Virus record (IMG/VR): IMGVR_UViG_2698536471_000018 | Location: 1 to 39,898 of that record | Length of the DNA stretch: 39,898 bases | Reading direction: 5' to 3' (one strand) | Source: a virus | Lineage: Duplodnaviria > Heunggongvirae > Uroviricota > Caudoviricetes | In this document: piece after piece, positions 35,961-36,290 of the stretch | Numbering within the stretch: the stretch's first letter is position 1 | How the letters are laid out: the number at the start of each line of letters is the position of its first letter | Notes under the pieces: generated by a model | What the model saw: the letters and a program-made list of their open reading frames with translations, nothing else | What the model was told of the DNA's origin: nothing | Databases searched by the model: none | Translations under genes and position numbers: made by a program

Positions 35961-36257
35961 ATGGAATTTCTGATAGTTTTTGTTGTTGTTTTGGTCATCA
36001 TTCTTTTTGTTTTGCTAAGCATTAGCAAAAAGCTATCTCAAATGATTGAACATAGCTCTAATCGCGCAAAAGAAGAAGAGCATCTAATTGATATAAAAGA
36101 GATTCTCTCTGATATAAAAATCACATTAGATGAAATAAAATACACAACAGATCTAATTGAACAGTATAAAATACCAACCCCAAACGAGAGAAAAGCAATA
36201 GATCAATATCGTATTGACTTAGAAATCGACGAAATGCTAAGCAAAAGAAAAGACTAA
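35961..36257 (+). CDS. Moron downstream of cI: small membrane-anchored coiled-coil protein (candidate exclusion factor)
   Basis: 98 aa, N-terminal TM helix (FLIVFVVVLVIILFVLLSI), charged helical remainder; AT-rich; own terminator follows. Confidence 0.6.
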   Translation: MEFLIVFVVVLVIILFVLLSISKKLSQMIEHSSNRAKEEEHLIDIKEILSDIKITLDEIKYTTDLIEQYKIPTPNERKAIDQYRIDLEIDEMLSKRKD

Positions 36258-36261
36258 AAAC

Positions 36262-36290
36262 ACCCGGCCTCAGCGCCGGGTTTTCTTTTC
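36262..36290 (+). terminator. Rho-independent terminator after cI-moron transcript
   Basis: CCCGGC-ctcag-CGCCGGG followed by TTTTCTTTTC. Confidence 0.8.

Follow-up and report, generated by a model that had tools for sequence, protein, structure and literature searches.

What does the small gene directly behind the cI repressor gene of this prophage do? The window (the whole stretch of DNA analysed, 39,898 nt) is a nearly complete prophage with lambdoid regulation, and the gene, orf98, sits in its immunity region. A preliminary description, made from the letters and their open reading frames, had taken its product for a small membrane-anchored coiled-coil protein that might act against other phages. 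We examined the anatomy of the region, the history of the gene, the architecture of its product and the functions that these features allow.

Anatomy of the immunity region

The coordinates of the main features are given in Table 1.

Table 1. Position of orf98, of the parts of its product and of neighbouring and other features in the window.
Feature	Position	Strand	Remarks
Integrase gene	1-1158		
O-acetyltransferase-like gene	1863-2879	+	phrog_3333, E = 1.5e-38; adjoins integrase gene
cII	34471-34854	-	diverges from cI
cro	34877-35122	-	diverges from cI
OR	35138..35200	.	three perfect ATAAC-N4-GTTAT operator palindromes in the cro-cI interval
cI repressor gene (235 aa)	35213..35920	+	HTH_3 and Peptidase_S24 autocleavage domains
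5' edge of cassette, with Shine-Dalgarno	35951..35960	+	homology to L003, L005 and L007 begins at 35951; unrelated further upstream
orf98 (predicted 98-aa single-pass membrane protein)	35961..36257	+	ATG ORF; member of PHROG 18389
TM helix FLIVFVVVLVIILFVLLSI	35967..36023 (codons 3-21)	+	mean Kyte-Doolittle 3.67; SKK follows
Conserved helix-break-helix domain IDIKEILSDIKITLDEIKYTTDLIEQYKIPTPNERKAIDQYRIDLEIDEMLS	36087..36242 (codons 43-94)	+	family alignments, dN/dS, AlphaFold2
Intrinsic terminator	36262..36290	+	stem ACCCGGC/GCCGGGT, then TTTTCTTTT; 3' edge of cassette
OL operators and PL-like promoter	36455..36496	+	operators 36455-36468 and 36480-36493; TTGACC-17-TATCTT overlaps them and reads towards N
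N-type antiterminator gene	36726-37025	+	phrog_271 (N-like antiterminator), E = 2.1e-36

A search of the whole window for ATAAC-N4-GTTAT gave 10 matches against 1.1 expected, and the three perfect copies begin at 35138, 35163 and 35187; two further palindromes make up OL (36455-36493). PRM must lie in this OR stretch. The cI product matched Peptidase_S24 (E = 1.4e-17) and HTH_3 (E = 7.8e-7) in Pfam, and phrog_4, the transcriptional repressor family (E = 4.5e-53), in PHROGs. The orf98 start codon follows the cI stop codon by 40 nt in the same orientation, and a Shine-Dalgarno sequence (GGAGG, 35952-35956) stands 4 nt 5' of it. Four bases past the orf98 stop codon, a hairpin (36262-36281; 7-bp stem with six G-C pairs; free energy -13.7 kcal/mol, z = -3.05 relative to shuffled sequences) is followed by TTTTCTTTT to ~36290. 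This terminator scores on the minus strand too and occupies the same position as lambda tIMM. The GC content of orf98 is 30%, compared with 43% for cI and 49% for the whole window. The preliminary description of an AT-rich gene, co-oriented with cI, starting 40 nt after it and followed by a strong terminator was thus correct in each respect.

The same description had assigned orf98 to the "rexAB/sieB position". The order OR, cI, orf98, terminator, OL/PL, N is indeed that of the rexAB slot. The reference to sieB was imprecise: in lambda and P22, sieB lies in the PL operon beyond N, not in the cI-PL interval, whereas orf98 lies upstream of both PL and N and matched no SieB-annotated PHROG. An Rfam scan of positions 34000-39898 revealed no RNA family within or adjoining orf98 and detected only the cIII thermoregulator. 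In prophage NC-SV, an sRNA gene, svsR, has been reported at the 3' end of cI (PMC12803456).

orf98 is a genuine gene under selection

The reading frame was intact in all 32 E. coli-type copies, which were drawn from IMG/VR, an Stx1a phage and a complete genome and comprised 15 nucleotide alleles; the amino acid replacements among them were all conservative. Homologues from Citrobacter and unassigned assemblies were 73-77% identical in protein and ~80% identical in nucleotide sequence. Relative to these Citrobacter-type copies, orf98 differed at 18, 7 and 32 sites in codon positions 1, 2 and 3, respectively, and dN/dS was 0.16 for the whole gene and 0.10 for the C-terminal part (residues 43-97), with dS ~0.8.

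Carriers were few. Of 5,426 complete E. coli genomes, 99 contained orf98; every copy was chromosomal and bore the annotation "hypothetical protein". EHEC O26:H11 strain 11368 (locus ECO26_RS17585) is one of the carriers. The single carrier in INPHARED (50,697 phage records) was the Stx1a-converting phage Stx1a_10051. A search of GTDB species-representative genomes gave 39 pattern matches, approximately the number estimated for chance, and none was confirmed; scans of metagenomes and plasmids yielded no additional contexts. When 1.84 billion representative proteins were searched exhaustively with a profile, only 14 clusters were retrieved. So narrow a distribution could suggest a functionless translated hitch-hiker or an annotation artefact. 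We consider this extremely improbable in view of the low dN/dS at substantial dS, the 32 intact copies, a protein motif retained down to ~27% identity, and the conservation of both ribosome-binding site and terminator. orf98 is a genuine, selected accessory ("moron") gene of the prophage immunity region.

The slot behind cI receives variable cargo

When cI and orf98 together were used as a query against E. coli genomes, the whole unit was found in 98 of them, and in ~68 the homology did not extend beyond the stop codon of cI. Behind cI alleles 92-94% identical in nucleotide sequence to that of the window, the slot contained a gene for a DUF3024 protein that matches the PADLOC candidate PDC-S43 (E = 7e-42). 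Two such loci, in E. coli FDAARGOS_944 and UTAK-1 (L079 and L082, DUF3024/PDC-S43 gene at 3746-4087 in both), had genes for 177-aa and 44-aa hypothetical proteins after it. At a further locus (L081, 2954-3459), 120-aa and 42-aa hypothetical genes replaced orf98 behind a ~98%-identical cI. Behind 79%-identical cI alleles, the slot lacked any co-oriented gene. The slot is a genuine variable cargo site, and orf98 is dispensable for lysogeny because near-identical cI alleles do without it. orf98 itself bears the marks of a moron, i.e., its own terminator, a deviant GC content, and replacement or absence behind cI alleles that are 79-98% identical.

The cI-N interval has been called a mosaic hotspot, occupied by rexAB in lambda and by bstA in BTP1, and its cargo has been presumed to use the strong repressor promoter that is active in lysogens (PMC8585504). 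In E. coli, the block comprising cro, cI, orf98, the terminator and OL (~34764-36606) travels as a single immunity module, and its flanks are mosaic. The same module is present in the Stx1a-converting phage, indicating that it has been exchanged between phages that differ outside it.

A promoter-less cassette keeps its place behind seven cI types

The 17-sequence family alignment was too divergent for locus finding. Family members down to ~36% identity with a readable neighbourhood all lay 1-40 nt 3' of a co-oriented cI-type repressor gene (HTH + S24). They occupied seven cI-type loci (window, L003, L005/L007, L038, L039, L040/L041 and L045), and the layout was the same in each repressor-linked locus: cro and cII point away from cI, the family gene follows cI, and N lies farther on in the same direction. 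The seven repressors are mutually 19-65% identical and the small proteins 29-96%, and the relationships among the repressors do not parallel those among the small proteins; the window and L003, for instance, share 77% identity in the small protein and 23% in cI. This fidelity to the post-cI slot across seven immunity types is striking and is the main new result of our analysis.

A Shine-Dalgarno sequence was present in every copy, and each copy was AT-richer than its own cI (30-40% vs. 43-48% GC). An intrinsic terminator stood directly 3' of the family gene in the window, L003/L005/L007, L038 and L041. Comparison of the window with the Citrobacter-type loci, whose flanking cI genes are only 20-23% identical to that of the window, defined the edges of the unit: nucleotide homology was limited to 35951-36284, starting 10 nt 5' of the ATG and stopping where the terminator stem ends. 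Within the hairpin, the stem was conserved and the loop varied (L003, L005, L007). The shared block includes just 10 nt 5' of the ATG and hence lacks a promoter; because homology is confined to ribosome-binding site, ORF and terminator, the unit is a promoter-less cassette that was either kept in, or repeatedly placed into, one slot. It provides a clean example of such a cassette holding its place when the repressor gene ahead of it is replaced.

The three remotest relatives (27-34% identity; Pelagicoccus and metagenomes) were not beside a repressor gene. Their neighbours encode a SHOCT-domain protein, a sigma-54 activator, an IS200 transposase and unknowns. Prophage immunity is thus not an inherent function of the domain.

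Small ORFs on the opposite strand were seen at some loci. In the Citrobacter-type loci, an ORF of 68-74 aa (6324-6530 in L003; 6324-6548 in L005 and L007) converges on the terminator of the orf98 homologue; the window has no convergent small ORF past the orf98 terminator. A different antisense ORF, of 69 aa, was found in the otherwise empty slot of an E. coli O145 prophage (L080, 3861-4070, minus strand).

Predicted expression

Promoter-like matches in the region numbered 3, compared with 4.0 expected in shuffled sequence. An internal PLIT-like promoter was considered but is unsupported: the 9/12 match at 35886-35914, within the 3' end of cI, is weak, and the region is no richer in such matches than shuffles. 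The short gaps between cI and the family gene at seven independent loci, the lack of a promoter in the shared block and the chance level of promoter-like matches make transcription with cI from PRM the best reading of the anatomy. Since no promoter of its own was found, orf98 would depend on that of cI. It would then be the second cistron of the cI transcript, which starts at PRM in lysogens and at PRE while lysogeny is being established, and cleavage of cI would shut it off.

Predicted architecture of the protein

The residues flanking the TM helix carry a charge of -1 on the N-terminal side ("ME") and +2 on the C-terminal side, which begins with SKK. In 17 family members, a short N-terminus that is acidic or neutral precedes the TM helix, and K/R residues come after it. 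By the positive-inside rule we infer an N-out/C-in topology, in which the residues beyond the TM helix would all be cytoplasmic except ~2.

The linker (residues 26-42) is variable, and conservation is concentrated in the C-terminal domain, which contains the motif IKY[TV]TD.IE.YK[LI]P…ER..[IL]D….[DN].E[IV]. Y69, P72, D81 and E88 are invariant family-wide. Structure prediction, which the preliminary description had proposed as a check, was performed with AlphaFold2 on a 10-sequence alignment and gave three helices (residues 2-38, 45-68 and 74-96; mean pLDDT 82, pTM 0.29); the break between the last two coincides with the invariant YK(I/L)P motif. A single TM helix followed by a helical domain, as first proposed, is consistent with this model. 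Residues 41-70 are hydrophobic at 78% of a/d heptad positions, which favours the coiled coil also proposed there. A search of the PDB with the family profile gave designed coiled coils as the sole matches, and these were compositional. Taken together, the heptad pattern and the restriction of matches to designed coils make a coiled coil plausible but do not demonstrate it, and oligomerization of the protein through this segment is plausible to the same degree.

One E. coli variant (P0010; 75 aa, five member sequences) has no TM helix; the part that corresponds to residues 37-98 is preceded by 13 unrelated N-terminal residues. The variant probably arose by recombination or deletion.

Family membership and database searches

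The preliminary description had recognized no family for this protein. This statement held for Pfam, NCBIfam, PADLOC, the PDB and fold searches, but not for PHROGs, where residues 1-98 matched positions 1-98 of the 98-position profile of PHROG 18389 (E = 5.2e-62, 207 bits). PHROG 18389 has no assigned function, so membership gives no mechanism. No other PHROG model matched significantly, and nothing else in Pfam, PHROGs, NCBIfam or PADLOC scored better than E = 0.008. Scanning orf98 with Pfam, NCBIfam and PADLOC, and 17 family members with Pfam, returned only sub-threshold matches (DUF5385, DUF4446, DUF948, MscL and ZorB3), which are driven by TM or coiled-coil composition. In PADLOC-DB v2 no defence model was significant, the best being ZorB3 (E = 0.0089, 13.5 bits), which aligned to residues 4-56, i.e., the TM helix and the segment just after it. 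Searches of Pfam, PHROGs, PADLOC and NCBIfam revealed no homology to RexA/B, SieA/B, Imm, Sp, Cor or BstA; Foldseek gave zero matches in the PDB and BFVD. All 14 clusters retrieved from the representative proteins encode products of 94-126 residues that keep the layout of TM helix, linker and motif, and in none of them is the conserved domain fused to other domains. A literature search for WP_033558356, WP_000394868 and phrog_18389 found nothing.

Comparison with known systems and candidate functions

Position and architecture together make up the case for a role of orf98 in exclusion or abortive infection, and the comparison with lambda bears on both. The RexAB system consists of cytoplasmic RexA and polytopic RexB and excludes T4 rII-type phages by membrane depolarization. 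orf98 resembles it in occupying the identical slot, past cI and before the terminator and OL/PL, in its co-orientation with cI, in its expected co-transcription with cI in lysogens, and in involving a membrane component. It differs in being a single gene with no second co-oriented ORF before the terminator, in encoding one TM helix instead of a polytopic protein, and in lacking both a RexA-like sensor and any sequence similarity.

An abortive-infection effector that achieves a RexB-like outcome from a single gene can be envisaged: the cytoplasmic domain would sense a phage product, and the TM helices would oligomerize into a leak or pore, causing collapse of the membrane potential. The shared slot, a very hydrophobic single TM helix beside an oligomerization-prone heptad helix, and a conserved domain whose predicted cytoplasmic location would suit a sensor are consistent with such an effector. 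We nevertheless regard it as unlikely: there is no conserved partner, the downstream neighbours differ at every locus, the protein shows no similarity to RexA, RexB or the PADLOC abortive-infection models, and ~75 residues are few for both sensing and gating.

HK97 gp15 offers a closer architectural parallel. Proteins of the gp15 type block genome entry of specific siphophages. Like orf98, gp15 is small, with an N-terminal TM helix, a positive flank, a polar helix and a predicted N-out/C-in topology, and is encoded by an AT-rich moron with its own terminator, in a lambdoid coliphage. Unlike orf98, it has 62 aa, lacks the YK.P…ER..ID domain and any counterpart of orf98 residues 46-98, and its gene lies among tail genes, not behind cI. 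The two proteins are 26% identical over 43 residues (E = 0.004 in a single comparison), a similarity dominated by the TM helix that does not establish homology.

BstA of Salmonella prophage BTP1 offers a parallel in gene position: its gene lies directly 3' of diverse prophage repressor genes, presumably shares the repressor promoter and is followed by a rho-independent terminator (PMC8585504). BstA has been reported at sites of phage DNA replication and not at the membrane (PMC8585504). No homology between it and orf98 was found, and no aba-like self-immunity element was identified at orf98. Two other exclusion proteins, lactococcal Sie2009 and streptococcal Ltp, differ from orf98 in coming from Gram-positive hosts. 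They are expressed in lysogens from genes beside the repressor, and their active domains are extracellular.

On this basis we tentatively favour orf98 as an inner-membrane superinfection-exclusion factor that acts in the manner of HK97 gp15, with a probability that we place somewhat short of even. The product would be a single-pass inner-membrane protein with ~2 periplasmic residues, and its heptad helix and conserved domain would lie in the cytoplasm. Anchored by the TM helix, an oligomer would engage a host inner-membrane component of genome entry or the membrane conduit of the incoming phage; DNA entry would fail, the cell would survive, and the lysogen would be shielded from other phages at its inner membrane. 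With almost nothing exposed to the periplasm, the action would have to go through the TM helix or the cytoplasmic domain, and the cytoplasmic location of that domain reduces the number of membrane mechanisms that remain plausible.

Several findings are consistent with exclusion. The gene lies between OR and OL, close behind cI and equipped with GGAGG and a terminator, in a slot that elsewhere holds defence-type cargo (PDC-S43, rexAB, bstA). It forms a discrete cassette, as the limits of its homology to the Citrobacter-type loci indicate, and this cassette is found behind seven cI types. It is under purifying constraint, most clearly in the C-terminal domain, with every E. coli-type copy intact. 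The architecture matches that of a proven exclusion protein, and the topology cues (short acidic N-termini, K/R after the TM helix) are family-wide. Against exclusion, PADLOC and Foldseek gave no sequence or fold link to known defence proteins. Unlike T4 Sp or Ltp, a protein with only ~2 periplasmic residues could not reach those components of an injection conduit that lie in the periplasm. The similarity to gp15 lies mostly in the TM helix, and gp15 is without the conserved C-terminal domain. The remotest relatives are not linked to a repressor, and a hotspot position is circumstantial, since such slots hold non-defence cargo too.

The same linkage to cI would suit a factor in lysogeny or host physiology that has no part in defence. 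Such a protein might be tethered to the membrane and modulate an inner-membrane protein or a protease of the host (e.g., FtsH), or it might alter envelope stress or prophage induction or stability; it would be expressed with cI because lysogeny is the only state that requires it. Linkage retained to 29-36% identity and across seven immunity types fits any lysogeny-specific function; the conserved domain is predicted to be cytoplasmic; and distant relatives outside prophage immunity regions suggest a general cellular target. However, accompanying repressors as little as 19-24% identical make a specific partnership with cI unlikely, near-identical cI alleles manage without orf98, and the phage already encodes cIII and a Kil-region module. 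We judge this explanation rather improbable, yet it ranks next after exclusion.

orf98 is very unlikely to be a small membrane toxin of an addiction or type I-like module, or a misplaced lysis regulator of the holin/antiholin kind. Small size, a hydrophobic N-terminus, AT-richness and a terminator that scores on both strands are features that orf98 would share with such proteins, and in the Citrobacter-type loci a convergent small ORF ends at the same terminator. However, no antisense RNA or antitoxin is conserved across loci, and the window lacks the convergent ORF. A constitutive toxin could not be tolerated in the operon that healthy lysogens express most strongly. orf98 lies outside the late region of structural genes, the place expected for a lysis gene, and type I toxins do not resemble its conserved soluble domain of 55 residues. 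An i-spanin (Rz-like) function was rejected: Rz-type i-spanins have the orientation opposite to the N-out/C-in topology predicted for orf98, whose N-terminus is not positively charged and whose gene is not among the late genes.

orf98 is filed under PHROG 18389 and the generic class of cI-N hotspot prophage morons only, because it differs from RexAB in composition, topology and homology, because homology to gp15 is not established, and because PADLOC gave no match. There is close to an even chance, in our estimation, that the family represents a novel single-gene anti-phage system of enterobacterial lambdoid prophages, whose YK.P…ER..ID domain would block entry of superinfecting genomes or trigger abortive infection, or, more radically, a membrane-tethered coupler of lysogeny to a host inner-membrane process. 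Such coupling would explain the placement of the gene behind seven unrelated cI types.

If orf98 is an exclusion factor, the cI-N hotspot would gain a further defence, one that consists of a single, very small gene, is easy to test and is present in clinically relevant prophages such as the Stx1a-converting phage and that of EHEC O26:H11 strain 11368. A small membrane moron behind cI will not surprise a specialist; the family itself is wholly uncharacterized. The predicted cytoplasmic domain has no known relative, and its target could reveal an inner-membrane step, in genome entry or in host physiology, that the prophage manipulates.

Other features of the prophage

Beyond the immunity region, the minus strand encodes tail-fibre, baseplate, sheath, tape-measure, portal and terminase proteins; a DnaB-type helicase gene and a replication gene come after these. 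A contractile tail (3683-23901, minus strand; sheath phrog_205, baseplate wedge phrog_6, hub phrog_196) is combined with lambda-type regulation (cI/cro/cII/N/cIII). The replication-initiator-like protein (33226-34173, minus strand) showed a repeated His/Ala-rich stretch in its translation. As in lambda O, the gene may contain an origin whose iteron repeats give rise to this stretch.

In the PL operon, an ORF of 156 aa lies directly past N (37034-37504, plus strand); it belongs to PHROG 1636 (function unknown; E = 2.7e-112) and gave no Pfam or NCBIfam match. Its counterpart in strain SRY149 is annotated as frameshifted. A full-length lambda cIII thermoregulator element (RF01804, 88.5 bits, E = 2.8e-21) was found at 37683-37741 (plus strand), 5' of a cIII-like ORF. 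At the other end of the window, the O-acetyltransferase-like gene that adjoins the integrase gene probably serves lysogenic conversion by modifying the O-antigen. If so, it would be a second prophage function that could act on other phages, in this case by blocking their adsorption.
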